Assembly (NCBI GenBank): GCA_951406725.2
Contig: OX597817.1
Location: 111,104,001-111,168,000, forward strand
From: Octopus vulgaris
Taxonomy: Eukaryota
DNA length: 64,000 nt
Direction of reading: 5' to 3'
Shown here: one piece after another, positions 1-62,639 of the stretch
Numbering within the stretch: the stretch's first letter is position 1
How the letters are laid out: every line of letters begins with the position of its first letter
Notes under the pieces: generated by a model
Database searches by the model: none
The model's input: the letters and a program-made list of their open reading frames with translations, nothing else
What the model was told of the DNA's origin: nothing
Position numbers and translations under genes: made by a program

Positions 1-232
1 GCACTACTTCAGTTTTACTTGGCAGGTCACCATTTGTACTTACCAGCCGTTCAGCATACAAAAGCTACAATGATATGGACACTGGAACAAGGAAAATAGA
101 AAAAGGGCCAGCCCAAGAATGTCTGGCATCACACATTCAAGTGAAATCTCAAATGCACAAAGACTAGTTGAACAGGAGTAGAAAGAACTTCAGCAGATTG
201 ATTGTACATGAAGAGGACCTAACTCTAAGTAA
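1..232 (+). mobile_element. Decayed 3' end of an RTE-clade LINE
   Basis: Frame +1 reads LAGHHLYLPAVQHTKATMIWTLEQGK*KKGQPKNVWHHTFK*NL...VERTSAD*. This matches the RTE ORF C-terminal pattern (W.GH..R......W...G.R.RGRP..TW....DL....A.DR..W), with in-frame stops. Confidence 0.75.
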
Positions 233-1459
233 TACACTGATTTATATAATTGGTGAGAGTAATTAGAATAACAATTATTGTCTGTTTTTGCCTCACCATA
301 AAATTCTATGAAAATAGGCATTTTGTTACCCCATTTAATCCAAAATTATTTATGTTTAGAAGATTAGATAATACAACATCAGTAATTGCTCCACTATCAT
401 CCAATTTAGCATCTCATATATATTAAGGTCAATTAAATTCACTCGTGTTCCCAAGCTTTTGTTTCTCAGCAAGAAATCACCATCCTCACTGTCATTATTA
501 GGTCAGTAGTGTGGCAATACATACCTTTACATTTTGGGTTAATAAAATAACGTAACAGTTAAGAACTTGAGTCAATTTAAATTACTACACTCTGTCCTCA
601 AAATCTGTGAGAAACTGAGTTTAAAACCTATAAATGTCAGCTTTTCCTTTCACTGTTAAAGCAAGTTCTAGTCAAATACTGGGATTGATTACATTTACTT
701 ACCTTTACTATACAATGAATGATCATGTGCCAAATTTATGTGTTATATTCTGGAGGAATAATGTAGGGATAATGTATAATTATCAGAAATTCTTGACCTG
801 GAAGTGCTACTGAGAGGCAATACTGGTTTGAGATAAACTTTACAGGCATGGAATTGCCATGAATAAGCCTGTCCAAGATACATACAGAGCAACAAAATCA
901 TTCCGCATGCACTCATTCTTTGTTCTAGCATTACCGTTTTATGGAGTTATGTTCATCAACTGGTGTTGTGTATAGGAAAGATTTAGTTATCAACTGAATC
1001 TATTGAGAAAATTGCTCCACCACCTCTTTCCTTTAACTGTCAGAGGTGGGCAGTTTTTCTCTGGTAGCAAATGTGAAATAGGTGCTGAAAGCACTTTCCT
1101 CTTCAACCCTTAAATTTAGAAAAAAATGTGAGGGTAGAGAAGAAAGTGCTATATTGCAGCAAATTTATTAAAAGGTGAGTTTCTGGTGAGAATGGCATGA
1201 GTGAATGGGTGTAATTTCAGCATGCATCGATTGGTTAAAGAATGTCATTTTGAAAGTTGATAGTTGAGGTTATCTTGACTCTGAGGAGTTATTTGATTGG
1301 CCCTAGTTGCCTCTTTTTTCTATTGGCTATAACATTTTTATCCTGTGTCTACTATTTTTATCTCATTCCATTTTTTTCATCCTATTTTCATGTAAACCAC
1401 CATATTTGTCTTTTTAATGTCTCATCCAACTGGCTTCCTCAAGACATATGATACCTCCA

Positions 1460-2025
1460 ATCCCTGTGGGGTTGATAAAATAAGGTACCAGTCATGTAAT
1501 AGATTCAATCTAATAGACTAACCCCCTTCTTCAAAATTTCAGGCCCTTTGCTTTATGCTAGAAACAATTATTTTCATCATTATCATCATCATCAAGACAG
1601 CAAGTTTGCAGATGCATTAGCATTCCAACAAAATGCTTAGTGGCATTTCGTCTGTTTTTACATCCTGAGTTCAAATTCTGCCTAGGTTGGCTTTGCATTT
1701 TATCTTTTCAAGATTAAAAGAATATCTACCAGTTGAGTACTGATGGGGAGGAGGTGGTCGATGTAATCAACTTGCCCCTCCTTCAGAATTACTGAACTTA
1801 ATATTATTAAGGTGGCAATCTAGCAGGATTGTTAGCACACCGGACAAAATGCTTAGCGACATTTCATCCGTCTTTACGTTCTGAGTTCAAATTCCACTGA
1901 GGTCGACTTTGCCTTTCATTCTTTTGAGGTCAATGAAATAAGTATCAGATATGCACTGGGATCAATGTAATTTAACTTACTCCTATCTCCCAAATTTCAG
2001 GCCTTGTGGTTTTAGGAGGAAGGAT
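1460..2025 (+). mobile_element. Three tandem copies of tRNA-derived SINE family A (1460-1570 partial, 1592-1800, 1808-2025)
   Basis: Shared motifs tggcagaa..gttagc, ctgagttcaaattc (B-box-like), gtcgactttgcctttcat, gataaaataagtaccag and aaatttcaggccttgtg, ending in TTA-type triplet tails. Confidence 0.85.
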
Positions 2026-2069
2026 TGTTGTTGTTGTTGTCATCGTCGTCGTCCTCCTCCTCCTCATTG

Positions 2070-2534
2070 TTCACCATTTGGTAGTTTCAGGTAAATTTCT
2101 ATTTCATCACCTGCTCCACCTCCACGTTGCTGGGATGTGTGCAGCATTGTGTATTCTTTTTTGTTGTTGGGATTGTGCAGACTCTTTGTATTGCATCAGT
2201 TTCTTTTTTTTATGGAGTGTGGTGCAATCTTTTGTTGTATATATGTTTGTATTATGTGTAATGCATTGGGTAGTTGGCATGCTGGTGGTAGTTTATTTTA
2301 TTGGATATTTTCTATATAGAGCCTGTCTTGTGTTTGTGAATTGTTTTGTTTTGGTTGTATTATCGAATTGATAGTCTCTTGTGTAGGATATGGGTTGTTC
2401 CTAACAGGCCTATTTTTGGATAGTGTGTAGTGTTGTGGATCCAGGTATAGCTTCTACGTTTTTGTTCATGTGATTTTTATCATGCCTAATGTTCTAATTA
2501 TTACTGGTATTGTTTTCACCTTCATGCCCCACAT
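2070..2534 (-). mobile_element. 5'-truncated R4/Dong-like LINE: C-terminus of the restriction-like endonuclease region plus 3' UTR
   Basis: Minus strand 2534-2360 reads MWGMKVKTIPVIIRTLGMIK/NKNVEAIPGSTTLHTIQK/LLGTTHILHKRLSIR* across frameshifts. This matches the R4/Dong C-terminus (IPVIIGALG...IQK..LLGTAHILR). Both sides are flanked by triplet microsatellite. Confidence 0.8.
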
Positions 2535-3943
2535 ATTATTATTACTATCATTTGTTATTATAAACCTTACTTTTTATACTGCTTACTGTATTATTTAAAA
2601 TGGTATGAATGTTCAGAATTTCTACCGGAAACAATTTTGTAAAACAAAAACGAATTACAGCATTCTACTGTTGAAATTCTGCTATGACTTATTTACTATT
2701 CTATTTCTTCCATCTTTTCAAAAATGTCGTGAATATTACTTGCAACTTACAACTTACACAGCTCTCAACTTTTATAGTGTTCAGGATTTTATTAGCTACC
2801 AATTTCATTGGTTATTTTCTAGTTTCTTGAATTTTTCTGTGGCTTGACGGAGTATTTCATTGGATGGCCACAGACATTCCTGTGTGTTATTTGCCATCGT
2901 CTGAATATCTAGATATCAGTGACTGTTGCACCTCCCATGATTAATGATATGAAGGTGCAGTTGTTTAAAACTAACACCATGTATTAATCACTAAAGAACC
3001 CTTTCTAAAAATGTAATTCTGAACAGCATGTCTTCACTTCATAGAATGCAGTACCTTTGCTGCAGATAATACCATGTCTCAGCATGAAGGGGAGAAAATA
3101 AATATATGCTCTTCATGGTTACATTTCAAGAAAAGACCCATGGAGCGAAGCAGATAGTTGTTAGGTTCATTTGTAACATTTGATTTAGTTTTAAACTGTT
3201 GTGCTTAAATATAGTTATAGATGGGAAGAAGGATGGGAAGAGTGTTTCTGCCTTCATAAGTTTCTTGTAGATCAACAAAAGTGTGTCATGAAAGCAGTGG
3301 TATAGTGCATCATGGTCTTAATTTTACCATTTCTTCAGTTGGGATAAGAAATTTACCCTCTTCCTGTCACAAGCAATGTTAAGATGTGATGAAATAACAA
3401 AGGCAACTAATGTGTAACAGTATAGAGACTATACATGCATTTCTTATCTTTTATAGTTTCATTTCATTGATCAGTTCAGTTATCCAATAAAGATATTGAT
3501 TGAGATTGCAACAGCAGTGTTTACTAATAAATCTCAGTTGGAAATAAAAATATCTCAAATCTTTATATTTATCATTTTGAGTTCTTGATGTGTATTTTAG
3601 TTACAAAAGTCATACTGCTTATGAAAATATGGAAGCTACAATAAAATAGACTGGAATATAAAAACAAAATCAGAAGGTAAATGTAGCCAAAACTATATAA
3701 TATTAGTCTGTAGTAATCTTTCGAACCCTAACATGTTCAGAACAAAGGAAAACGATAATCTGTTAACAAAGTGTTAGCGCTAAGCAGTGTTTAGACATGA
3801 GTAGAATTAGTTAAGTTGAAATATGTTTGTCATATATTTCAACTGCTAAAAGACCAATACACTGAAGTTACCCTGGAGAATATATCTCTCTTATGGTAAG
3901 GTGTGAAAACACTCAATTTGTTCAGTGTCCCCATCTATTAGAA

Positions 3944-3990
3944 ATCTCAGACATCGATGTTTCGTACTTCTTGGCTCTTGTCAATGAGAT
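3944..3990 (-). ncRNA. Minimal type I hammerhead ribozyme, U3-A8 core variant
   Basis: Minus strand: AUCUCA-UUGACAA-GAGC caagaa GUAC-GAAA-CAUCGAUG-UC-UGAGAU. Stem I is 6 bp, stem III is the palindrome ACAUCGAUGU, the cleavage triplet is GUC, and stem II has one mismatch. Confidence 0.75.
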
Positions 3991-4201
3991 GTACCTAAGA
4001 GAGGCGACTCTGAATGAACTTATAAAGCCATAACTTTATGTATAATTCAGTCAACACGTTGACTGATTTGCGCTAGTAGATCACCTGACCAAGGGAAAAT
4101 AACAAAGTTTTAGTGCTAAGCAGTGTTTAGGCATAGTTTGACTGAATTATACATAAAGCTATGGTTTTATAAGTTCGTTCAGAGTTGCTTCTCCTTGGTA
4201 C

Positions 4202-4248
4202 ATCTCATTGACAAGAGCCAAGAAGCTTGAAACATCAATGTCTGAGAT
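4202..4248 (+). ncRNA. Minimal type I hammerhead ribozyme, U3-A8 core variant
   Basis: AUCUCA(4202-07) UUGACAA(4208-14) GAGC caagaa GCUU(4215-28) GAAA(4229-32) CAUCAAUG UC|UGAGAU(4243-48). Predicted cleavage is after 4242. Confidence 0.75.
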
Positions 4249-4589
4249 TCCTAATAGATGGCAACACTGAATAAACCAGGAGTTTTCACACCTTTTTACC
4301 ATAAGAGAGATATATTCTCCACAGTAACTGCAGTGTATTTGCCTTTTAGCAGTTGAAATATGTGACAAACATATTTCAACTTACCTAATTTCTCTCAATA
4401 ATCTATTAATTTAATATGTTATAAGACAAAAATTGCTGTGGGTTTGCTGCTGATAATGTTGCAGAGAATTAACATAAGCTGTACAGAAGTACAGCTTACA
4501 CTATGAGTAACCAAGACCTCAAGAGATTAATTGTCCTAATTGTCTGATTAAATTATTAGATAAAACATGCTTTTGAAGTATTATAATTG

Positions 4590-4960
4590 AGACTGGCTGT
4601 TGAGTGAGTGATAGTATAGTGACATCAGTATGGGATATTTGGAAGAAAGTGAGGACATCTATCTCATTTGCAAACAAAGAAATTCTTTTATGAAAGGTAA
4701 ATTTTATTACAAGTGCATTAAATATTTTCATGGTGTGAAGAATTTTCGCAATATAGTCAGATGACTGGAGAAAAATATGGTAGGAAAAGTAAAAAATAAA
4801 CATGTGAGGTAGATTAAATGAAAATATGTCAAAGTAAGTGATTGGAAATCAGAAGCATTAGATATTATCTGCTAGAGAACACCGCAACATAATTACGTGA
4901 GCATTACACACAGGGTTGAGTAGTAAAATTGAATGAAAGTGTATTGACCTGAAGCAGTTA
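4590..4960 (+). mobile_element. Heavily decayed RTE-like LINE fragment
   Basis: Fragmentary translation (GC..S.V....WKK.R...MKGK.Y..C.....HG) resembles the RTE post-RT region, with many frameshifts. Confidence 0.4.
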
Positions 4961-6725
4961 CATGAGAATAGAAATAATTAGGTTTCACAAATGATATGTT
5001 GGAACACATGTGGAGATACTCTCTATTTACAGCATTTTAATATATTTCACCAAGAAGAAAGATATATTAAACCAGTATTTAGGGTAATGATTGTCATATA
5101 TTATTGCTGATTTTTATGAGTATAATAAAAGTTAATGCTAGTATATGTATGTACATTGTACATGATATACCGACATTATAAATATGGATTTTCTGTATTA
5201 TATAGCTCTTCATATAATATTAACACTGAAGTCTTGAGAAACTATTGTTAATCATTTGCAATTTCTCTATAGTTAAAGAAATGTTTTTCAGTATTTTTGT
5301 ACTTTCAATAGGACAGTGGTGTGATTGCTATTTTAGAACAGTTCTTCTGAAATGTTTCTCATCTAGACCAATGACTTTCAAAATTTCTTAGATATCGACT
5401 ACACTGTTCAATAGATCATTTATAAAAACATATTTTTACTTTATTATTTTCATTTGTATTTTGATTAGTGATCTGCATGTTAAATGTGCAGAATACAATA
5501 ATAATAATTATAATTTATTGAGCACAATGCAACTTTTTAGTAAAAATATGTATAATATTTTCCATGTTAGTCAGGTTTATAATTCATCTATTGATGTTTT
5601 TATCTTCATTCATCTGTATTACAGTGAATTAACTTGTTCTGAACTTTAGACACTGATAACTGATGCAGGCTTTCCCTATTTTCAATGGACTCTAATTGTT
5701 TCACTTCAAGTCAGCTCTGATTGACAGACCTTTGGTTAAAGACTGTTCAGTTGTAACTATCCCTCCCTTTGGTGGGTATCTTGGACTATATTATTTAATG
5801 TGTGCCTTTGTAAGATGATGGAATATGAATTGTAAGAGATTTTGGCTGTTGTTCTAGCAAACTGATACCAGTATTCCTCTGTGGAATTTCATGTTTTCAC
5901 TATTTAAATGATTGAAGTGAAAGAGTATAAATACTGCTTTGATATTCTGCTTCTAATCTGGAGGATACTTCAAAATTTGTCTAAAATTAGCCATTAGTTT
6001 TCAAAAATTTTTTTAATATTTCTTCTTTAATAAAAAGTGAAAATGCTATATTTATTTATATAATTCATGCTTTCGCTATATCTCATTATTGCATAGTTGT
6101 TTTAGCCTTCCTGAAAGAATGGTTCAAATGATAATATTTTTCAGACATTTTATGATGTAACTGTTATGGTATTTCTCACCAAATCTAAAATATTTTCTCC
6201 TATGTTGTATGCACTCACATGTTCTGGCTTTGTATCTCCTTTGAATTCTATCATTTGCAAGGCATAAATATTTCAATAATTGATCACTGGTTGTATCTCC
6301 AATGGTTATTATTTTCCTCTTTCTATGATGCTTCTGATAATGGTTAGCCTTCATTTATGTTTGGCCACAGGTTTGGAATACTTCGTGCACTCAGGAGGCA
6401 TATGGTTGGGCAAACTTCCATGTCATAAAGAGCTATATTTACTTCATAGAGGATAGCTTATCTTCACTATTTACAAAGTTAAGATTCATCTAAATCAGAT
6501 TAAATACTAAATTACTTCTCTTTTTATAGTACTTTTGTGTTTGTTGCCTTCCAGAGCTGCCCTACACTATTTTCTCTACCATTCATTACATCTATTTTTT
6601 TTTTTCGTATTCACCATTCTTCATCTGCATTGTTTACTTGCTATTTGTTTTCATTTGTTAGATTAACATTCTGGTTTTTTTTTTCTGGTTCCTGAATTCT
6701 GCTAGTAAGTTTTCTTTCTGATATT

Positions 6726-6729
<4 letters not shown>

Positions 6730-6765
<36 letters not shown>
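6730..6765. repeat. (TG)n microsatellite
   Basis: Perfect dinucleotide run. Confidence 0.95.
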
Positions 6766-6767
<2 letters not shown>

Positions 6768-7225
6768 CTACATCTTTGCTTATTTATGTTTTTTGTTTGT
6801 TGGATTTTGTAAGCATATGGGTCTAAGCGTAGTGAGGAATTTAAAAAGATCATTCCACAGCCATATGGGGGTTGGGGTGTCATGTCCAATTTAAACTGCA
6901 TGGAACCTAGGACAGATATCTTGTGCCATTGCTGCAGATTGACTGATACCTTCTGAATGGAATTTAGTAGACAGAAATTGATATGGAAATGTGTCATACA
7001 CACATGCATGTACATATGTGTGTGCACACGTGCATGTGTGCTTGAGTATTTTTGTTTATGTACGTGAAAGATATAAACACAGACAAAAACCCAACAACTT
7101 TTACTGTAGAAAATGCAGTGAACCAGTGACTAGTGTATTTGAGGTCTATTATCAATGATAGTAATTGTTCATAAATAGTGATACATAATAAATATATATG
7201 CTTAAGATTTATTTTGTCTTGTTTA

Positions 7226-7279
7226 ATTTAGAAACAGCATTTTTTTACATGCATATATGCATATTTGTATGAGTCCATT
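7226..7279 (+). repeat. ~53-bp direct duplicate of 11010-11062
   Basis: atttagaaac(a/g)gcatttttt(t)acatgcatatat(g/a)catatttgtatgagtccatt occurs at both sites. Confidence 0.9.
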
Positions 7280-8180
7280 GCCTTCTGATTTATTGCAGTC
7301 CTTTGTCATTTTCTTTGCATGTTCAACTTATTGAAATCAGTTTTCACCACTTCTTCCCATGTTTTCCTTGGCGTTTTTTTTTTTATATTTTATTTTATAG
7401 GTTCCTTTCATACAGGTTGCTTAGATACTTCTTTACCCAACTGTCATCCTTTATATGCACTGCATGTCCATACCAATGTAGTCTTCTCTCTTGCAGGCTA
7501 CATCTGATTCCTCTTGTACCTAATTTTTCTGTCAGCTCACTTATGCTCTGTGATTCATAACATGAATTGTCCAGAAAAGCTTACTCTCTTCATTTCATTC
7601 CCTGTACTTAGCTTGCACTGCTCACATTAGTTACTTATCAACATCTAGTTTTCTTAGTGATCAACAGATGACAAAGCATAATACCTTTCCAAAAGCTTTC
7701 TCTGTATTGACAGTTACTAGGAATGGTAATTATCTCTTAACTAAGAACTTTTCCTGTAGTGTTCTCACTAGGAAGTGGACATTAGTGTTACCTAGTCTTG
7801 GAACAAAAATGATACTGCATTTCATCTAAAATAATTTCTCTTCTTAATTAGTTGTGCTATAATTCTTTTATAATTTGCATAATCTGGTCTGTTAATTTCA
7901 TGCCTGTGTAACCTCTCTTTTGTCCTTCATAATGATGCTATTCCAATCATTGGATATGGCACCTCCTTGATTGGCATGCATGTAAGTTGTACATTTCTTA
8001 CTTTGCTGAATATTTTGGCATCTCAATAACTGATTCAGTAACTTTTCTTGCTTTTATAACTTTGTATTTTCAACCCTAGAGCTGTTAATTTCCATATGTG
8101 GTTCCCATGTTGTACCTATTTGAGTTGGTCTCTCTGTCCCCGTCCCCCATGTATTATTGACATTGAGCAACATCTCTTAC
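7280..8180 (-). mobile_element. Internally deleted RTE-clade LINE (RT domains joined to C-terminus)
   Basis: Minus strand reads YTGMKLTDQIMQ..., LDEMQY/FVPRLGNTNVHFLVRTLQEKFLVKR*LPFLVTVNTEKAFGKV...SLRKLDVDK (the RT FVDLEKAFD region). It then jumps to ELTEKLGTRGIRCSLQERRLHWYGH...PRKTWEEVVKTD. Confidence 0.85.
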
Positions 8181-8535
8181 TCAAAACTTGTTCAGAACAA
8201 TACTTAGAAATTGCTAAAATGCTTTTGCCTTTTGTTTCACTAACATATACCACATTTTAAAATATCGAATATTAATATTTTGTTTGTCAAGCTAACAAGG
8301 GACTCTGTATAATGTTTTGCTTATTAGAAATTAAATGCAGCCTGCCATTTGAAAAACAAACAAAATGAAGAACATCTTATATAATGTGGTTCTTGATACA
8401 CCATGTCTGAATAAAAAAAATGAATGATGATAGCTGGAAGATCTTTGACTATACACCTACTGGATCTGGCATGACCTGGGTCGAAACAACAACGATAAAA
8501 ATACCTGTTGTTGATTCTTATTATATTAAAAGGCT

Positions 8536-8685
8536 ACCAAATTTAGGACAATGAATATTTTATCAATCATTATGTGTTGATGTATTAAGCATGTGTTATT
8601 CTTTAAAGCAAAAAACATTTCAACATTGAAAACTGCAGATATAAAATACATGAAAAAATTAAAATCAAACACATTCCAAAAAATA
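8536..8685 (+). repeat. ~150-bp inverted duplicate of 11241-11389
   Basis: accaaatttaggacaatg...aactgcagatataaaatacatgaaaaaattaaaatcaaacacatt is the reverse complement of 11241-11389, with only a few mismatches. Confidence 0.92.
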
Positions 8686-11600
8686 AACTGACCACAAAAA
8701 CAAAATAATAATAATAGAGCCTTTTGTTCTCAGTTTATTAAGATGCTTACCAACAAGCCATTAGTTTTTATGACACTGCCTTTTTGACAAGTATGTGTAA
8801 TGAGCAACAATGGCAGAGGGAGGCGGGCAAGATAAATATATGACAAATTATGCAAAAAGTTAAATCATCAGTCTTTTATTCTTTTCCTTGCCATACTCAT
8901 TCTACTGTAGCCATAACTTGAGTACTGCTTTCAAAGGCATAGTTGATTATATCAACAACAGTAGTTGACTGGCACTTATTTTATCAACTTTGGAAGGTAA
9001 CAGGCAAAATATACCTAAGAGAGTACAGAGGACAAAAGAGGTGTAACCATATTTTACAAGTTTTTTTTTGTTTTAAGCATAACTGTTTCTACTATTCACT
9101 TGCCATACAATACTCAAAAATATTAGGCAAGTTCACCCATTCCAAATCAGTAATACTTGGAATCCCATTAGCTAAATATTTTAACAATAAAGAATCATTG
9201 TGATGATATTTAACATTTGTTTATTTGTTTTTTAATTAAGACAATTAAGTAGCCAGGAGATGCATTGAGCAAGCTGACAGGACAACAGAGAAGGCACAAA
9301 TTAATTTTGTTGTTGATGGATTCATTTCAGTAATATGAGAAAAGGAGTAACCTTATTGATTCAGAAATAACCTGAGCAAGCTTTCACATAATGCCTTATT
9401 TAGTAACCTGACAATGAGTCAGTTTGAATGAACAAGTATTTATTAATGTTTCTGTGATGGAGAAATTTAACTGCATACATTTATGTGCTTACATGCGTGT
9501 GTGTGTATGAATGTGCAATATATCGTGATTATATTAATTTCATATTAAAGAAATCTATTGGAGAGTACTTCCTGTAAATATTGGTATTTTATCAGGAATG
9601 CAACAAAAGCAATTGAGATAATCTTTTCAGACAGAAATAATAACAACAAATTTCACAGCTACTGATTTCCCATAGAATTCTCTCTCGCCCCCAAAAAATT
9701 GAATATAGAGGAGACATAATACATAAAATTTATAGGGAATGTTATACACCTGTTCTATGCACAGAATGGTGTGTGTTATGAGAGCATATTAATATTGGAG
9801 AAAACTTAATATTGCATAGATGAACTTCTGTCTCATTTCCTTTCATTCTTAATGACTTTTTTTTACAATAGTCACTAATATTGCAATATTAACTAATTGT
9901 AATGAACATCTCAATCTAATTTAAATGTATTGAGCCAATGAGAAAACCTTTATATTTCCCCTTGATCTATTAGAAAGTGTAGCCAAATTTTTCCTTTATC
10001 ACACTATGTCTTATAAAAAGAAGGACATATTGGATAATGATGCAGTTCTAAGCATTATCATCCAATGTGCTGTAACCTTCAAGGGTTATTAGCACCTTGA
10101 AATTGCAAAATTTGGAGCTAATAATCAGTGAAGTGCCATTCTGCAGCAGATGTTAACTTACTACTGGCAAAGTGGACAGGAGGAATGTGAAATGAAGTGT
10201 CTTTTGTAAGGACACACAGCACACTGCCCAGTCTAGAAACTGAACCCATGATCCTATAATTGTAAATCCCACAGCATATACTTGCAATAAAAAAGTGTAT
10301 AAATGGATACAATTTAATCATAGGTCAGTTAGATTAGTGCTAATCTGAGATGAGACAACAAAATTTTAATAGATAGAAAGAAATGTAGGTAATGGTATTC
10401 CCCTGATCATGATCGTCAACTTAAGAAATATGGTTGTTAGAAAACCTTTTATATAACATGTATATTCTGATGACTCTTGTGAGAAATTTTCTGCAAAATG
10501 TGCTAAAATTTCCTGTTTTACAAAATTTCCTTCTCATCCCAGAAATCCCACAAATCTAGTCTCAGATTCCCACACATTTTTATTTATTTATTTATTGTTT
10601 CAATGATTTCAGAAATAACGGAAAGATTTGATATGGATTCAAAATAATGCTTATCATTATTTCAATGACTCTACATGAGAAACAAGCCATAAATATTGGG
10701 TATCATTCCATTCTGATATATGCCATTTGTTAACTTATATCTGGGACTTAGCTGCTTTTTATAGCAGTTCGAACAAAAACATAGAAGTTCCCTTCTTGGC
10801 TTGCTATTTTCAAATGATCGATCCTATCAGAATATTGTTCTGTCATTTCTAATGAGCTACACACCACATAGTAATAAAATAATTGAAATAAAAGTGTTTG
10901 TTCTTTATCAAAGATACAAAGATTTGATATTTGTAATTTATCATCAGAGAAGTGATAGTTATGCAAAATTTTCAAGTCAGAAGAATATTGTAACTAGTTA
11001 AATTGATTTATTTAGAAACGGCATTTTTTACATGCATATATACATATTTGTATGAGTCCATTTATTCACCATGAAATTGTTTGAAGCTGAAAATAGCCCT
11101 GGAATCTTCATCTTTAATGGAACAGAAGTTAATGAAAAATGGTTAGAAAGATGCACTGAGATGGAAAACAGAAAACCATAGTGGTGATGATAACATAGAA
11201 TTATATCTAGTCACACACAAAACATTTACCAAAAGCTACATATTTTTTGAAATGTGTTTGATTTTAATTTTTTCATGTATTTTATATCTGCAGTTTTCAA
11301 TGTTGAAATGTTTTTGCTTTATAGAATAACACATGCTTAATACATCCACACATAATAATTGATAAAATATACATTGTCCTAAATTTGGTTTAATCTTTGG
11401 AATTAGCAGCAGAACTATGTCACTTTGAATTCTCATCTGTCATTTATGTCTCCTTAGGAACAGTTTTTGCTTTTGGATTTTTGTATTTAATCTTAAAGAA
11501 TATGGCTATTCTTAGCAATTTATGGAATATTGAACATACAACCAGACGTTGCTTTAGTCTTGCCAGTAAGAAAGTTTCTAAATGAATAATTAACACTTTG

Positions 11601-18500: not shown

Positions 18501-19715
18501 TATAAAGTGTTTATCATGTATTCACATTATAAACATTGTATATTATCCACTCAGGACTACATTAAATAATGTGTCCTTTCTGTTTAATTAAGACAATAAG
18601 TAATTATTTGTGGGAAATTTGGTTACTGTTTCTAACAGATTAAATGATCATGTAGAAGTCTTCTTGTTGATTTGTATAAGTTTGGATGTTGTGGTGGAGA
18701 CAAATTTTCAGGTTGGGTCCGTCATAAAAAAGTATATTCTGTAATCAACTTTTATTGGGAAATATGTAATTGTTTTTCACTATGTTATATTTGCATTCAA
18801 GTAAAGCAAAAAAGATGAAACTATTGATTTTAGCATTCACTTAAAGTTCATTGATAGCAAACCACTACTTGCTTTATTTTTTTTTTAGTTGTTAAAATAT
18901 CCACCAGTTTATTTTACTATTTTCATACTATTTTTACTTCATATTGTTCTTGAGTCCCATGCAAGTCCTAAGTTTGCCCTAATCAAAGACTCCCATTTAT
19001 CATTAATGGTTTATCTTTATTTTTTAAAGTTTAGAATGTCATTTGTGGGTGATTTAGTTGCTATTTCTACTAGATCAAGCAACCAAGGAAAGCTTTTATC
19101 ATTGGTGCATGTTTTACTTCTTGTGCAAAGGCTTTTTTATTAATGTAATTCTGGTGTATATGTGTCAGTGATGATGTATTCTTGATATTAAAATGTATTC
19201 CAAGTATTTTTAAGGTAATCTCTCTAAAATCTCTGTGGAGCCGTTAGCTACATCAATAATTGTTACTATTCTAGTCTTGACAGCTTCACATATTTCCTTA
19301 TCACTCTTCCATTTCCATATGGTACTAGGAAAGTTATTCAGTTATAAAACTTTTCTAATTAGATGTGTATGCATCAGTGAACATAATGTTACTTTACCCA
19401 CATAGATTAATATTCTGTCTGTACTATATATACAATTGTCTAACCCTTAACATGATTCTATAGTTATAAATGATAGTTGTGATCATTATTTTTCGCAGAC
19501 TCTGGAAAGTTTAAAATGTCTTGATGTATTTAGTTATGTGACCTTACAGTTTGAGTTCACATCTTGCTCACAATGACTTTGTATTCTGTATTTGTGGAAT
19601 CGATAAAATATATTTTAGTCAAATACTGGGATATATTTGACTTTATCTGTGCTCCCCAAAAATCTAGGACCATATACTTAATGTTAGTTATCATTTTATT
19701 ATTATGCCAAACAGC

Positions 19716-39065: not shown

Positions 39066-39173
39066 CACATGGAAGAAAGTACAACACAGAAGAATGTCAA
39101 TGTATTATTAACCTATGGTAAGATACTGAAAAAAATGGAAAATATTAATATAAATGTACAGGTATGTTGACCT

Positions 39174-41560
39174 ATGAGAAATATGAAAATAAAACAAACA
39201 AGGCCCAAACTGTGTTATGGTTGTGGTAAGATGCACTTCAAAAGGGACTGCTCCTTTAGGAATAAAGAATGTTTTGCTTGTGGAAAAATGGGGCTTAAAC
39301 AGTCGCAGTGTTGGGTGAAAAAGAAAAGGTCAAACAGAAAAACAAATAAAGTGTTTGCAATGAAAGCAGATAGTGAAACAAAAAAACGAAAATTTGTACC
39401 AGTAAAAATTAATAATGTACACACAAGATGGCAACTAGACACATGGAGCGATATCTCAATAATAAATACTGAAACTTGGAAGACCTATGTTCAAGAAAAC
39501 AACGCAAATAGCTCGTGGAGTCTCTGGATAGCAAGTTCAATTCCTGGGTGAATTGATGCTAGATGTAACATTTCATGGGAAGACGTTCAAAGCAAAGGTT
39601 TACATATCAGAAAATACCATGAATCTGTTTGGTACAGATTGGATGGAGACAGTTAATTTGTGGGATTTGCCCATAAACATTTTCTGCAATAATGTGAATA
39701 CATCGCATGCCAGTTTGAACAAGGCATCTGAAAAGTTAAAAATGAAATTTAAAAAAATATATCCTGATGCTTTTTTGGAAGAACTTGGTACATGTACAAA
39801 AGTAAAAGTGAAATTCCAACTAAAAGAAAATGCCATTCCAGTTTTTAAACCAGAGAGAGCTGTGCCTTTTGTGGCACTGAATCAAGTAGAAAAAGACTTG
39901 AAAAACTTGAGAATATTAGTGTAATACAAAAATTAGAATATTCAGAATAGGCAGCACCAACTGTGTACATAAAAAAGAGAAATAACAAAATAAGGGTCTG
40001 TGCCAATTTTTCAATGTGATTAAATGAATGTCTGAAAACTTATAACTATCCATTACCAAGTCTAGAAGAGATTTTTACCAAGCTTGATGGAGGCAAATTC
40101 TTTTCTAAATTGGATTTATTGGAAGCTTATATACAGCTGCTGGTCGAAGAAGAATGTTCCAAGCTGTTAAAGATAAACACACACAAAGGGTTATACAAGT
40201 TTAACTGACTTCCTTTTGGAATAAAAGTCACACCTGCAATTTTTTAACAGGTTATGGATACAATGTTAGCAGACTGTGAATTTGCAATTCCATACCTGGA
40301 TGATATATTAATTAAAAGTGAACCTCATGATCAGCATGTCAAGCACATAAAGTGTTTTTGAAAAAATAAGAGATTACAGTTTCACACTGAGGTAAAATGT
40401 GAATTTTTCTTACCTGAAATTAAGTATTTAGGACAAATTATCGACTGGAATGGATGATGACTGGACCCGTTGAGGGTAGACACAATTAAAGATATGCCTC
40501 CTCTGACTAATATAACAACCTTACAAGCTTTTCTAGATCTTGTGAATTACCAAATGTATATTCCAAAAATGCACAAGCTAAGAGCACCTTTAAACAATCT
40601 TTTGGAAAAAGATGTGAAATGGTGTTGGACTGACGAATGCCAAAAAGCATTTGAAAGGATTAAAAAGGTGTTAACGTCAGAGCTATCTCTAGCACATTTT
40701 GATCCAAAAGTAAAAATGATTGTAGCATCAGATGCTAGTGAGTCTGGGATAGGAGCAATAATCTTACTTAAGTTGGAAAATGGTAACATAAAGCGGTGCA
40801 TATTATCTGGTAGTGGCCTGAAATTTGTAAGTGCAGAAAACCAACTACGAAAATAACTATTGAATTTTTGGATGAAATATTTGCATGTTTTAGTGTACTG
40901 GACACTATAGTGTCTGATAATGGCATGCACTTTACAGCAAAAGAGTTCAAAGATTTTTGTAAGAAACATCAAATGGAACATGTCACTACCCCACCATATC
41001 ATCTGAGGTCAAATGGATTTGTGGAGAGGTTCATAGATACGTTTAAAAGAGCACTGAGGAAAACCAGAAACGAACCATTAGTGGATAATACTGACAAAAC
41101 TTTTACATGTCTATAGAATAACACCAAACCCCAACAGAGAGTTGGGTGTGTCACCCGCTGAATTAATGTTTGCCAGAAAGGTACAATCAGTAAATTGTAC
41201 TAGGAAGGAAACAACAAAAACAGAAGAATACTGTTAATAATACAAACTATCTCTATATAGATGACACAATATTTTTTTAAATGTACAAATATGGAAAATA
41301 AAGTTAGGAACAAGGACGATTAACCAAATGTCTTAGTAGAGTAATATATATGGTGAAAGGGCAGATATGTGAGCATGAGACATGTAAATCAAATAAAAAA
41401 AAGATACACAGAAGGACGAAAAAGGCAGGAAGAGCCTATGGAACTACTTTATTACATATTTGATATTCTGGTGCCACAGGAAAGGGTTGAACCAGTGCGC
41501 AAGTCAACTAGAAAGAGAAAGAAGATGGAGATGGTAGAGATTGATTCTAAGCTAACAAAT
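39174..41560 (+). pseudogene. Gypsy gag-pol pseudogene (frameshifts, stops, internal deletion)
   Basis: Knuckles CYGCGKMHFKRDC and CFACGKMGLKQSQC; protease LDTWSDISII; RT YLDD at 40293-40304; RNase H ASDASESGIGA; integrase SDNGMHFTAKEF...SNGFVERF. The RNase H C-half and the integrase HHCC are missing near 40790. Confidence 0.92.
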
Positions 41561-46400: not shown

Positions 46401-48951
46401 CTTACCATCTTTAAAAAAAAGGACATATTATTCCTACATATATGAAAGACTGGAAGGTCTTTGATCATACAAATCTGCTCAGTCAGAGCTTACCTGGAGG
46501 CTTCAGTTATTTATTTCTTGCCTCACTAAGTAGTGTATTTTTAATAAAGAAAATATATAAATGAAGTATAACTTATGCAAGCAAGACAAGCTTTTTAGCT
46601 GTTGTTGCAATGTGCAATGGAATACATTGGACAAATATAACTAAATGTCTTTTTTTCATACAAATGTCTAATACTGTATATTTGGCTACAATGGTTAAAT
46701 GCTGCTTGAATTAAGTATACCTTATTGCTTCATTATGCATTTGCTATTCTTGCATTATAACCACCTGACACACAATCTAATCCATTAAAATGTAATGTCA
46801 GTGCCTTTATAACCATGGAACAAATGTCATTTCTACAGTTGTGATCAGATAGACATGAAGTGGTTGCATCATAAGAAAAGCCAAAACTCATATTCATTTC
46901 TTTCAGTCTATATTTCGTTGGCAGGAAGATGAATCCCTGCTGCCTCTCGCATTTTAGTGTCCATTATTGATAAGACCAAACAAGGCCAAAATCATGTGAT
47001 CGAGGGGTTTTGGTGTTGGAGGTAGTGAGAATTTATCTCCCCACTAGGGGGCATTTTGCATCAAAAAGCCCAATGTGAGAGTTTCTCTTATGGAAGCTAC
47101 CACAGTATAGCTTGTTCTAGTAGCACATCCATGTTTAGTGGGGCTAAATATTACCCCTAGGTTAATTTATGTTCCCTCTGTCACTAAAATATATATATTT
47201 CTTTTATCATCCATTCTGTGCAATATGGAGTATTAGTTCTTTTCCACACTCATTATGTTCCCTTTATGCAATCCTTTTCCATTTCTGGAAGAAATGGACA
47301 CTGTGACTGGGATGCATAACATTCTGTCAGCACTGCATAGCTGAATTTGAGAGGGACTGGGGAGAGAAAGGGAAGTGGGTGCAATAAATCTCAAAACTTA
47401 ACTGGTACATATCAACTCCATACAGATAAGCCAAAAGTTGAATTTTGTTAGATTTAGGCTCAAAATGCAAAGTGCTGCAATATTCACTTCAAGATATTTG
47501 TGCCAATCAACATAAGTATTTACTATGGAGAAAAAACAACATGCTATTTATTGTTGTTCATTAGATGTCTGTCAGCTATGAGATCAACTGGATCTCTAAT
47601 CAAAGGTATTCCAGTTGTGCTGATCCTACTTTTAAGTTATGATTTCAAAATAGAAATTTTCCAATTAGTCCTTTTTTTTTTTTTTAAAGTGATAAGGATG
47701 TCATTTTGAGGGATATTTGGCTGCTATTTCTAGCAGTTTGAGCAATTGCTTAGAAGCTATTTTGTTGATTTGATGCACTTGTGAATTATGGTGGTGATGG
47801 TGGCACTGGTGGCTGTGGAAGGGTGTGTGTGTTTGTATGTATGAGTGCTTGCTCCTTAAAATATCTAATAATAGGTCAACCCATAATGCTAAATATTCTT
47901 GTAACATTGCGTCTTATCTAGGAAAAAATATAGGCAGATATAACTGAAAGTTCTTTGCATGTGTGTATTGATGGATATCTCCTTAGGAATAGTCTTTAGT
48001 CCCAGATTGTTACTATTTCAGTCAAAATTATAAATGTCACAGACTGAATTCTTTTAGCCTGCTCAACCAAGAATGCTTTAATGCTTTCCTTCCTACGAAT
48101 ATCACCAAAAGAGAAATATTTTTCATTCAGGAGCTGTGTATACATTGACATATTTTCTTTGAATTCCATCCATTTCACTGGGGGTAACACTAAAACACCA
48201 TTCTCTTTTAACACTACACTGAGACAAAAAAAACTGTTACAAAAAGATTTTCTTTCTAATTTTGATTTTGATGGAATCTGAACTACTGTTGAAATATCGC
48301 TACACATGCCTAGTCTTTCATTTCACTTGTCAATCACCATTTATTTATTTTTCATGTGATAGTTTCTGTATGTGCTGTTTGGCTTTATTTCTTTATATAT
48401 ATATATATATATATATGCAAAATCAAAATAAAATTTAACTGAAAGGAAATTCAAAGACAAATATCAACATTGTGAGACATACAACCAGTAGTTACATTGC
48501 TGGGTTATAAACCAAAATATATATGACATTGCAAATGTAGAGTTCCTTCATTTCAGATGTGTTAACCTTTGCTAAAGTTTGTTTTATGCTACAGCTGTGA
48601 TATTGAGAAAATTGTTGTGTGTAGTTACATATAAAATGTTTGGTATCTTTCTAAAATTGACAATTTACAATTTGGAACTGAAATCATTCTTGTCCGTTTG
48701 ACTATATGAAAGTGTGTATGTGTGTGTATATTTATATTATCAGTTAGTTGCCAATATGTCAGAAGAAAAGAACACTCAATATGTGTATATATTTTTATTT
48801 ATCATCAAGTAGTATATTACCAGTTATAGCATATAGCTTGTCAGATTTTGACCAATGGTTTCAAGCCAACTGTTGCAATAGGCAATATTGACAATTTAGC
48901 CATGCTGGTTGGAAGTGCATAACCTCTTTTATGCTGAAAAAAATATATATA

Positions 48952-60174: not shown

Positions 60175-60403
60175 AGGGACCTTTTGAGCAGGATGGGCTA
60201 TTAAACTTGAAAATTCTAACTGGGCCCCATCTGCAAGGTTGTGCACTGTTTATCTTGATATGAGATCACCATGTTGCACACTTATGGTTGTGATGCATGT
60301 GCCTAGTGTACCCTTATCAGATGGCTAGTCATGATGGGTATATTGGGCTTCATATATTTGTAGTCCAGTATCACTTTGATGGCATGCACTGCTCTCTCAC
60401 TCA
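60175..60403 (+). mobile_element. 5'-truncated copy of a (TAA)n-flanked non-LTR repeat
   Basis: Aligns to 60984-61215 and ends gcactgctctctcactca+(TAA)n. Confidence 0.85.
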
Positions 60404-60416
60404 GTAATAATAATAA

Positions 60417-60632
60417 TCTTTTCTACAATAAGCACAATGCCTGAAATTTGTGGAGAGGGGGTAAGTTGATCACATCAACTGCAGTACTTCACCAGTACTT
60501 AATTTATTGACCCTGAAAGGATGAAAGGCAAACTTGAACTCGGCAGAATTTGAACTCAGAACACAAAGATAGGTGAAATACCACTAGGCATTTTGCCCAG
60601 CATGCTAATTATTTTGCCAGCTTGCCACCTTA
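60417..60632 (-). mobile_element. Full-length SINE family A copy
   Basis: Reverse complement of aaggtggcaagctggcaaaa...ctgagttcaaattctgccgag... Confidence 0.88.
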
Positions 60633-60657
60633 ATAATAATAATAATAATAATAATAA

Positions 60658-61215
60658 ATACCCTGATGCAGTACCAGGCAGTGGCTCTCATGGCTTCTGA
60701 TCTTAACTGGTTGGAAGTGTTATTATGTTCATTGTTTTGTCTTGATATGAAAGATGGGTTACAGCAAATATTCTGCTCAATACCACAGCTTTGCTTGTCA
60801 GTTGTTTGACCATAACCAGTTGAACATGTCCCATAGTGGCTGAGGATATGTGCATCTCAGATCATGAGCAGAAGTAGTGGGTGAGCATCATAGCCATGTG
60901 TTGAGAGGAATTCTTTGAGGTTTGGATAAATCATCTTTGGAAACATGGGTGTTTCTTTCAACATCCCTAAACAACCCTTTTTCAGGGACCTTTTGAGCAG
61001 GATGAGCGACTCAACCCGAAGAAAATTCTAACTGGGCCCCACCTGCAAGGTCATGCACTGTTTATCTTGATATGAGATCACCATGTCATGCACATATGGT
61101 TGTGATGCATGTGCCTGGTGTACTCTTATCAGATGGGAAGTCATGATGGGTATACTGGGCTTTGTATATTTGTATCCCAGTGTCACTTTGATGGCATGCA
61201 CTGCTCTCTCTCTCA
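60658..61215 (+). mobile_element. Longer copy of the (TAA)n-flanked non-LTR repeat
   Basis: Preceded by (TAA)n at 60631-60657 and shares its 3' end with 60175-60403. Confidence 0.85.
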
Positions 61216-62639
61216 ATAATAGTGTGTGTGTGTATTTATCCTTGGAAACTAATGATCCAATGTTTAGTTGTGCATTCAGCTAAGATCTTTGAATTGTGTT
61301 TTTTATTGTATATAGTTGTATAACAAGGATTTAAAATTTCCAGCTATACTTGAAAGCTTACTAATTTGGCTAGAATACATCACTGTTATTATTTTCTATG
61401 ACTACTACATTGGTTCATTGCATCCTCTTCTTTATTAAAAAGTTGGGTATTAGTTGATGTAGATCTAGCTGCTATTTCTAGCAGGCTGAACAAAAGTATA
61501 GAGTTTGTTTTGGTTGAAACCAAAGCAATATGGTATAGCATGTTGCAAAATCTTAAAGCTTTGCTACAATAAAATGGGTAAATATTTAGTAAACAACAGT
61601 TAAAAAATTGATCTGAGAGCTATATTTCTTAGCTGAAATTTAATTAATAAAGAACAATTTTCTTGTATTTTGTTTTGTGGGAACAAAGTAAAAATTTAAG
61701 AGTAACTATTATGTGCTTTTATTTATTCACAAGTGAGTTCTTTCAGGTTTAATGTATTCAATTGTAGCTACTTTTGTGAGATAAGGGTCCTGGACTGATT
61801 TTTTGCTTGTTTTTTTCATGTTAGACCAGCTTTTACATCAAAAGAGCAACACTTAGATTTTAAAGTGACATTGGCCTAAATATATTTCTTGAAAAATAAG
61901 TTATATTGCCTCTTTTTTGTTCTTTTTTCCCTTTTTTCAATATTTTCTGTTGCTTTATTTTTATAGTTTTTTTTTTTTATCTTTTATTGTCTCTTTCTAA
62001 CTTATCAACCAACCTATTTTTTGGCATGACAGTTTCTTACTAATCTCATTAACATGAATTTTTATTTATTTTTTTTCTTCTCAATTACCTACTCTGACTT
62101 CATCTTAAAAGCTATTAGAATTAATTGCAGCACTGAATTTCTGAAGTTATTTTTTCCTTTTTATTGTTTGACAGCTGGTTGTCATTTCCCCATTGCTTTG
62201 GTAGCATATAACTATTCTATGAAGATTCTACTTGTTCTAGTTTTATTCTCTTTTAATATAAATCCCATAGTTTACCTAACTTTGGGTGTGGATGAGTGAA
62301 GTACCAAGACAGTTGAACAAAAACCATCACAGATGATTCTAACCACCTGCTTTTATCTCTTAGCATCATGCCTTCACAGAAAGGGATTTTGCAAATACCC
62401 TGTCAAATAGCAGCTAATTTTGCTCAGTGGTTTATTATCCATATTTTCTTATGCTATCCCATCCAGTATGTTCCAGCTTTTAGATATTTGTGGGGATTAG
62501 TGCAATACTTATATTGAGACCTACTAGATATTCATATTTTTTATTCTCTCTCATAATAACCTTTTTACTTCCACATTTTTGATTTTGCTTAAAATTCAAG
62601 CCTACATGTATAAATTAGATATATATATATACACAGTAT

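Follow-up and report, generated by a model that had tools for sequence, protein, structure and literature searches.

A decayed octopus insertion with an extended U3-A8 hammerhead motif on each strand: a likely non-LTR retrozyme, probably copied by a Penelope-like element enzyme

A single insertion of a 336-bp repeat without ORFs lies at positions 3764-4399 of the window, that is, the whole stretch of 64,000 nucleotides of Octopus vulgaris DNA that was analysed, and it carries one hammerhead ribozyme motif with a U3-A8 core on each strand. Direct observation covers the motif and the covariation of its helices, as well as the repeat family and the insertion footprint. The locus is probably an old, decayed copy of a non-coding element with an extended U3-A8 hammerhead, likely copied by the enzyme of a Penelope-like element (PLE), and thus likely a non-LTR retrozyme. 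Its features are given below, with the unit numbered in the ribozyme sense from u1 (window 4099) to u336 (window 3764).

3755-3766, plus strand: probable left target-site duplication, 12 bp, of which 11 match 4398-4409; it overlaps the element end by 3 nt
3764-4099, minus strand: one full 336-bp unit, ORF-less, 37% GC, 90% identical to the family majority
3764-3796, minus strand: 33-bp PLE-type tail (u304-u336), only at this end of the insertion
3938-3998, minus strand: extended type I hammerhead with its U3-A8 core at 3984-3978; the cut is predicted after 3950, the helix III palindrome is perfect and helix II contains an A.A mismatch
3990-3944, minus strand: parts of this motif, AUCUCA 3990-3985, UUGACAA 3984-3978, stem II GAGC/GUAC, GAAA, palindrome ACAUCGAUGU, C17 at 3950, UGAGAU 3949-3944
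4100-4134, minus strand: 35-nt 3′ end of an upstream unit (u302-u336), a partial tandem and direct repeat of 3764-3798
4138-4399, plus strand: inverted 5′-truncated copy (u46-u303) that lacks the tail; identity is 93% with the family majority and 89% with the direct copy
4194-4254, plus strand: extended type I hammerhead with its U3-A8 core at 4208-4214; the cut is predicted after 4242, the helix III palindrome is broken and helix Ib is weakened
4202-4248, plus strand: parts of this motif, stem I AUCUCA 4202-4207, UUGACAA 4208-4214, stem II GAGC/GCUU 4215-4228, GAAA 4229-4232, C17 at 4242, UGAGAU 4243-4248
4398-4409, plus strand: probable right target-site duplication, 12 bp; 2 nt overlap the element end

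The original prediction had placed a hammerhead on each strand within 3944-4248, and direct reading bears this out, with the minus motif at 3990-3944, the plus motif at 4202-4248 and the core UUGACAA in both. A type I core was defined by Y3-U4-G5-A6-N7-R8-A9, G12-A13-A14, A15.1-U16.1, H17 and a Watson-Crick 3-8 pair; UUGACAA, GAAA, A15.1-U16.1 and C17 are present in both window motifs. A relaxed descriptor matched the 64-kb window twice, exactly at these two motifs, and matched none of 300 shuffled 64-kb windows. The prediction was also right that stem III of the minus copy is the perfect palindrome ACAUCGAUGU, for which a self-duplex energy of -12.9 kcal/mol was calculated. It had further held that such a ribozyme would be missed by CUGANGA searches, as follows from the core UUGACAA, and the same applies to Rfam: no hammerhead family was matched in window 1-10000 and 3700-4450 up to E = 10, the only matches at the locus being sub-threshold ones to plant miRNA hairpin models. 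Elsewhere in the window, 46950-47016 on the plus strand gave a weak covariance-model match (17.8 bits, E 0.018) with a UUGAUAA core and no intact GAAA, which is possibly a decayed relative or a chance match.

The predicted motifs had been called minimal, and in this respect the description does not hold. Stem I of both motifs extends past a UAC/U internal loop into a second helix, and the full motifs span 4194-4254 and 3998-3938. In the alignment, helix Ia has 6 bp and is followed by the conserved UAC/U internal loop and a helix Ib of 5 bp, while a 4-bp helix II is closed by a 6-nt loop of the CAANAA type and a 3-bp helix III by a UCGA loop. In the min-HHR definition of PMC4209133, helix I has 4-5 bp with an ill-defined loop 1, helix II has 7-8 bp and an unpaired base lies between 9 and 10.1. 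In contrast, helix I here comprises 6 + 5 bp, helix II 4 bp, and there is no extra base. To judge from its sequence, the motif is thus of the canonical metazoan type I form, extended rather than min-HHR, and its layout suggests a contact between loop 1 and loop 2.

Both motifs belong to the same insertion, whose inverted repeat (arms 3798-4054 and 4138-4397) extends beyond the interval 3944-4248 noted at first. Similar 12-bp flanking repeats were read by eye at three other loci (L009, L173 and L192). The 336-bp unit has stops in all three sense frames, there is no 100-aa ORF at the locus, and tblastn gave no match within the 64-kb window. Consequently, as no ORF with a reverse transcriptase (RT) and GIY-YIG is present at the locus, the element is non-autonomous. 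A retrozyme unit is taken to be a non-coding sequence of 150-450 bp, with a GC content below 50% and a canonical type I hammerhead, a description that fits the present unit at 336 bp and 37% GC.

Each copy of the motif in the window is damaged. In the plus copy, the palindrome is broken, with a self-duplex of -3.8 as opposed to -12.9 kcal/mol, and helix Ib contains two mismatches, while the minus copy, whose 10-nt palindrome is perfect, has an A.A mismatch in helix II. In addition, whichever strand of the locus is transcribed, the antisense arm comes first, and the transcript is predicted to form a 250-bp hairpin, arm on arm, that buries the motif. Within the family, conservation of the core (0.88) does not exceed that of its flanks (0.87-0.90), and the genomic copies decay neutrally. 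The lesion in each copy, the hairpin and the conservation values together indicate that the presence of one motif per strand is a by-product of PLE inversion and not the outcome of selection for a ribozyme pair, and that the locus is likely dead now. The two motifs were also considered as a dimer acting in cis. This was ruled out, as they lie on opposite strands and therefore cannot partner within one RNA, and as the predicted fold of each whole-locus transcript pairs one arm with the other.

The unit belongs to a repeat family, here termed family A, with hundreds of copies in the genome (2.8 Gb in 227 contigs searched). A DNA search with the unit returned 1,773 candidates, 40 of which were scored. 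Exact motif patterns had 242, 137, 313, 244 and 179 matches, as compared with 0-1 for the reversed controls; the first of these counts comes from a pattern for the 3′ half of the motif (1 control match), and the third from a pattern with a free Y3/R8 core (1 control match). The U3-A8 core itself, as predicted, extends across the family: in the first 100 sites listed of the 313, read by eye, 88 are U3-A8, 8 are C3-A8, 4 are U3-G8 and none is C3-G8. An origin of A8 by CpG decay of a canonical core was considered and ruled out, given that C3-G8 occurs in 0 of these 100 sites, and U3-A8 is the ancestral state of family A. A second known core variant, with C at position 4, is present in 18 of the first 100 motifs listed and segregates as a subfamily. 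Mean divergence among 106 copies of the family is 12%, and the two window arms share 90% and 93% of their positions with the family majority; the family is consequently old. Among the listed sequences that contain the motif, none is recorded as RNA. Pieces of the family are found in contigs from runs tentatively taken to be RNA, often inside longer contigs; these gave no sign of circles, and contigs cannot show RNA ends.

Three sister families, A2 (L031, L042, L057, L103 and L119), B (L039, L047, L052 and L061) and C (L146-L165), share the U3-A8 core and the 10-nt palindrome of family A, with different helix sequences. Inverted copies occur among these families, and direct-repeat periods are 319-356 bp in B and C. 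A fifth family, D (L084:10-72 and L266-L291), has an extended U3-A8 hammerhead in which loop II is often CAAAUA. Its layout is that of the other families, with a palindrome of 6 nt, a period of 360-365 bp and 95-98% identity between tandem units, and it makes up most of the 774 matches of another pattern. Family D is younger than family A and a better substrate for cleavage tests than the window copies. No PLE ORF was found between widely spaced pairs of D.

Covariation was assessed in 46 motifs, hand-picked from 101, that sample families A, A2, B and C. Both sides have changed in 15 of the 19 pairs, in 173 cells (0 of 500 shuffles gave as many), counts that stem from four lineages with non-independent cells and not from 46 independent events. 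Pairing is retained in 88% of cells, against 30-42% when the partners are slid. All the changed pairs lie in helices Ia (6/6), Ib (5/5) and II (4/4), while helix III, which was partly selected by the search pattern, is invariant. The stems therefore covary across sister families. No covariation between U3-A8 and C3-G8 was seen within the four families.

Marks of EN+ PLE insertion are a partial tandem, an inverted 5′-truncated copy and a one-sided tail of 30-40 bp (PMC8557442, PMC3846280, PMC11167929), and in an Anolis PLE the tail has been explained by RT starting at two internal sites (Frangieh et al. 2024, PMC11167929). Among 141 distinct insertions of family A, 67 are head-to-head, 70 single and 4 of other types. 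Forty-six exceed one unit (the longest measures 549 nt, and the extent reaches 1.6 units), and the unit's own 3′ end directly precedes u1 in 46 of the 141. Two full motifs in direct tandem occur in two insertions (L035 and L205), and two full units in none. The 3′ ends peak at u303 (18) and u336 (31) among 143 alignment ends, a set that includes some duplicate loci and tandem-internal ends. Of the 13 head-to-head insertions whose two ends could both be placed, 10 have the 33-bp tail at a single end, as in the window, and TA-rich DNA adjoins 50 of 93 placed 3′ ends. The inversion point varies between copies, and the 5′ ends are ragged. At some loci, the inversion junction folds back at the helix III palindrome, exactly so at L210:781-1125 and also at L186 and L200. 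The 5′ ends of family copies have no clear peak at the predicted cut. Alignments start within the predicted cut region (u151-156) in 5 of 98 cases, and exactly at u151 in 1 of 23 inspected (L228); the other near-cut cases are L251, which starts at u151-153, and L255, which ends at u150, i.e., C17, numbers too small to serve as evidence. A cluster of starts at u137-140 has two sources, the trimming of alignments where helix II varies and fold-back at the palindrome.

These insertions resemble those of EN+ PLEs (PMC8557442, Craig et al. 2021; PMC3846280, Arkhipova et al. 2013; PMC11167929) in the partial tandem, the inverted and truncated copy at the 5′ end, the one-sided tail, the short target duplication, AT-rich or (TA)n targets and two RT start sites. 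They differ from those insertions in the absence of an ORF and in a unit junction that joins the tail straight to the unit's own start. The attribution to a PLE family made in the original prediction therefore stands in part: the insertion footprint is of the PLE type, but the unit is a 336-bp, ORF-less and non-autonomous one and not a coding PLE family.

The genome contains coding PLEs, whose 781-aa frame combines RT and GIY-YIG with a CxxxxCxxC linker, the linker motif suggesting a Neptune or Nematis type; at least 15 of 150 scored GIY-YIG matches fall in a 781-aa frame. A motif of the form UUGAUAA...GAAACAUG was found in 19 of 30 GIY-YIG loci, in 18 of them downstream on the ORF strand. It is U3-A8, like the motif of the unit, but simpler. 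One PLE (L126:1-5172 / L127) is young and apparently intact, with a separate 333-359-aa frame upstream of the 781-aa RT-GIY-YIG frame and pLTRs that are 99% identical. Its 3′ region contains CCAAT/TATA-like motifs, and a U3-A8 hammerhead motif lies some 100 nt from its 3′ end. The search for an autonomous partner was shallow, covering these 30 loci and about 200 family loci. Unit DNA had no significant match in the 30 loci, which are mostly young families, the unit being about 12% decayed. PLE proteins matched the family loci only in adjacent, separate PLE remnants (L114/L142 and L156) or over short lengths, and no shared ORF-derived sequence was found upstream of the copies, where tblastn matches were short or set apart by microsatellites or other repeats. 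As no autonomous element alignable to the unit was found, the PLE enzyme is deduced from the footprints.

Other accounts of the unit have been weighed against this evidence. It could be the pLTR of a coding PLE that is extinct or has escaped the search, its copies being 5′-truncated stubs, with no independent non-autonomous RNA. Such an account would explain why the footprint equals that of coding PLEs, and opposite-strand hammerhead pairs 100-700 bp apart have indeed been ascribed to truncated PLEs (PMC4209133); the shallow partner search also leaves it room. Nevertheless, it is rather improbable: what lies upstream of u1 in those 46 insertions is the unit's own 3′ end, for up to 1.6 units, the copies showed no common ORF-derived upstream sequence in the loci searched, and families B, C and D have periods of their own, of 319-365 bp. 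Far less credible is a DNA transposon of the MITE or foldback type, with terminal inverted repeats of 260 bp, or else a microRNA-like hairpin, either of which would resemble a hammerhead by chance. Although the long inverted arms and the sub-threshold Rfam matches are in keeping with it, the inversion point varies by copy, an inverted arm is missing from 70 of 141 insertions and the 5′ ends are ragged, so that the insertion survey largely refutes this reading, while covariation and the 0 matches in shuffles argue against chance.

The remaining alternative concerns function, namely that the motif is a structural relic or a binding signal for the PLE enzyme that does not cut in vivo, in which case the template would be uncut read-through RNA. 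In the Anolis PLE, hammerhead mutants had no effect on in vitro insertion and RNA-seq contained no reads starting at the cut site (PMC11167929), and 8 of 9 Xenopus dimers did not cleave (bioRxiv 10.64898/2026.07.22.740005). In general, poor or absent cleavage is common among published PLE and retrozyme hammerheads. Furthermore, the copies of family A read through the cut site and lack a clear 5′ end peak there. On the other hand, four families whose helix sequences differ have retained all catalytic positions together with the 3-8 pair and the helix III palindrome, and the layout is kept in the fifth. This retention points to selection on catalysis in the source lineages, and U3-A8 has been reported as active in vitro (PMC3088659). 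A motif that does not cut is, in our opinion, unlikely.

Under the preferred reading, that of a non-LTR retrozyme, an active ancestor would have been transcribed as more than one unit. Two hammerheads would then pair through the 10-nt helix III palindrome, which is present in family A and in the minus window copy and broken in the plus copy, and cut after C17. Consistent with this, helix I forms in the predicted fold of the monomer, whereas helices II and III do not (pair probabilities of about 0.1 and 0), which fits activation by dimerisation through the palindrome, as in axolotl retrozymes (PMC7229834). A PLE reverse transcriptase-endonuclease would nick AT-rich DNA, and cDNA would start at either of two sites 33 nt apart, u336 or u303. 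The enzyme would read across the unit junction and the cut site, and a second, truncated cDNA would join in inverted orientation. Because the copies read through both the junction and the cut site, the template would be either a ligated circle or an uncut multimer, and the data fit both. As a circle, the majority unit has a folding z of about -11 against 25 shuffles, and its antisense about -7. Evidence against this model is that no insertion of two full units occurs among the 141, unlike the long arrays of published retrozymes. The absence of helices II and III from the monomer fold, the failure to find an alignable coding partner in the loci searched, the neutral decay of the core and the want of a clear 5′ end peak at the cut also count against it.

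A broader reading, possible but somewhat doubtful, is that at least five extended U3-A8 families, with more than 1,000 exact motif matches invisible to Rfam and CUGANGA searches, make RNA circles that Neptune-type PLE enzymes copy by internal priming. The two priming sites would lie next to a hairpin that forms solely where one unit joins the next; in the predicted fold, the tail pairs with u15-u30 across this junction. If circles were indeed the template, the copies of 1.0-1.6 units that pass through the cut site would be direct footprints of reverse transcription on circular ribozyme RNA, and the same U3-A8 core in coding PLEs would mark the source of the ribozyme.

The original prediction implied that U3-A8 was new, but the variant is already in print. 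Natural covariation of the core pair to U3-A8, in rare examples stated to be active in vitro, was described by Perreault et al. 2011 (PMC3088659), and minimal PLE hammerheads of Schistosoma mansoni, with about 1,300 matches, include U3-A8 (Cervera and de la Pena 2014, PMC4209133). The covariation of the 3-8 pair is alike in the former, but in this one genome several abundant repeat families, and one coding PLE family as well, have U3-A8 as their core. The PLE hammerheads of PMC4209133 share with ours U3-A8, a palindromic helix III region, opposite-strand pairs and predicted action as dimers; they differ from the 6-bp helix I followed by an internal loop and second helix, the 6-nt loop II and the 3-bp helix III found here. 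Metazoan non-LTR retrozymes (Cervera and de la Pena 2020, PMC7229834; Li, Clavereau and Pollet, bioRxiv 10.64898/2026.07.22.740005) provide the closest frame for the unit. They are likewise non-coding, low-GC units of 150-450 bp with a canonical type I hammerhead, a weak palindromic helix III, a highly self-paired predicted RNA and head-to-tail repeats, and PLEs have been proposed as their mobilising enzyme. In contrast to those retrozymes, the present family has a U3-A8 core, forms dispersed partial tandems of at most 1.6 units and not arrays, is known from DNA alone, carries an explicit PLE tail and inversion footprints, and has no alignable autonomous pLTR among the loci searched.

In the parts of the literature that were searched, neither the 336-bp family nor an extended retrozyme hammerhead with U3-A8 is described. 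As the core variant and the mirror-image layout are known, the family is a new example built from published parts, and the window locus, as a decayed copy of that variant and layout, has its value as a test case. The insertions of the family, with their full PLE footprint, support the standing proposal that PLE enzymes mobilise animal retrozymes. In addition, hammerhead counts based on CUGANGA or Rfam overlook abundant families in this genome, as illustrated by the 313 + 774 exact matches, mostly U3-A8 among those listed.

The window also contains other repeats. A family at 1568-2035 recurs at 19685, 33694 and 60406, an inverted pair at 8536-8685 and 11241-11389 is 96% identical, and a direct pair at 60175-61221 is 88% identical. 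At 39171-41116 on the plus strand, broken frames were seen by eye that resemble the zinc-knuckle, protease, RT and integrase of an LTR retrotransposon.
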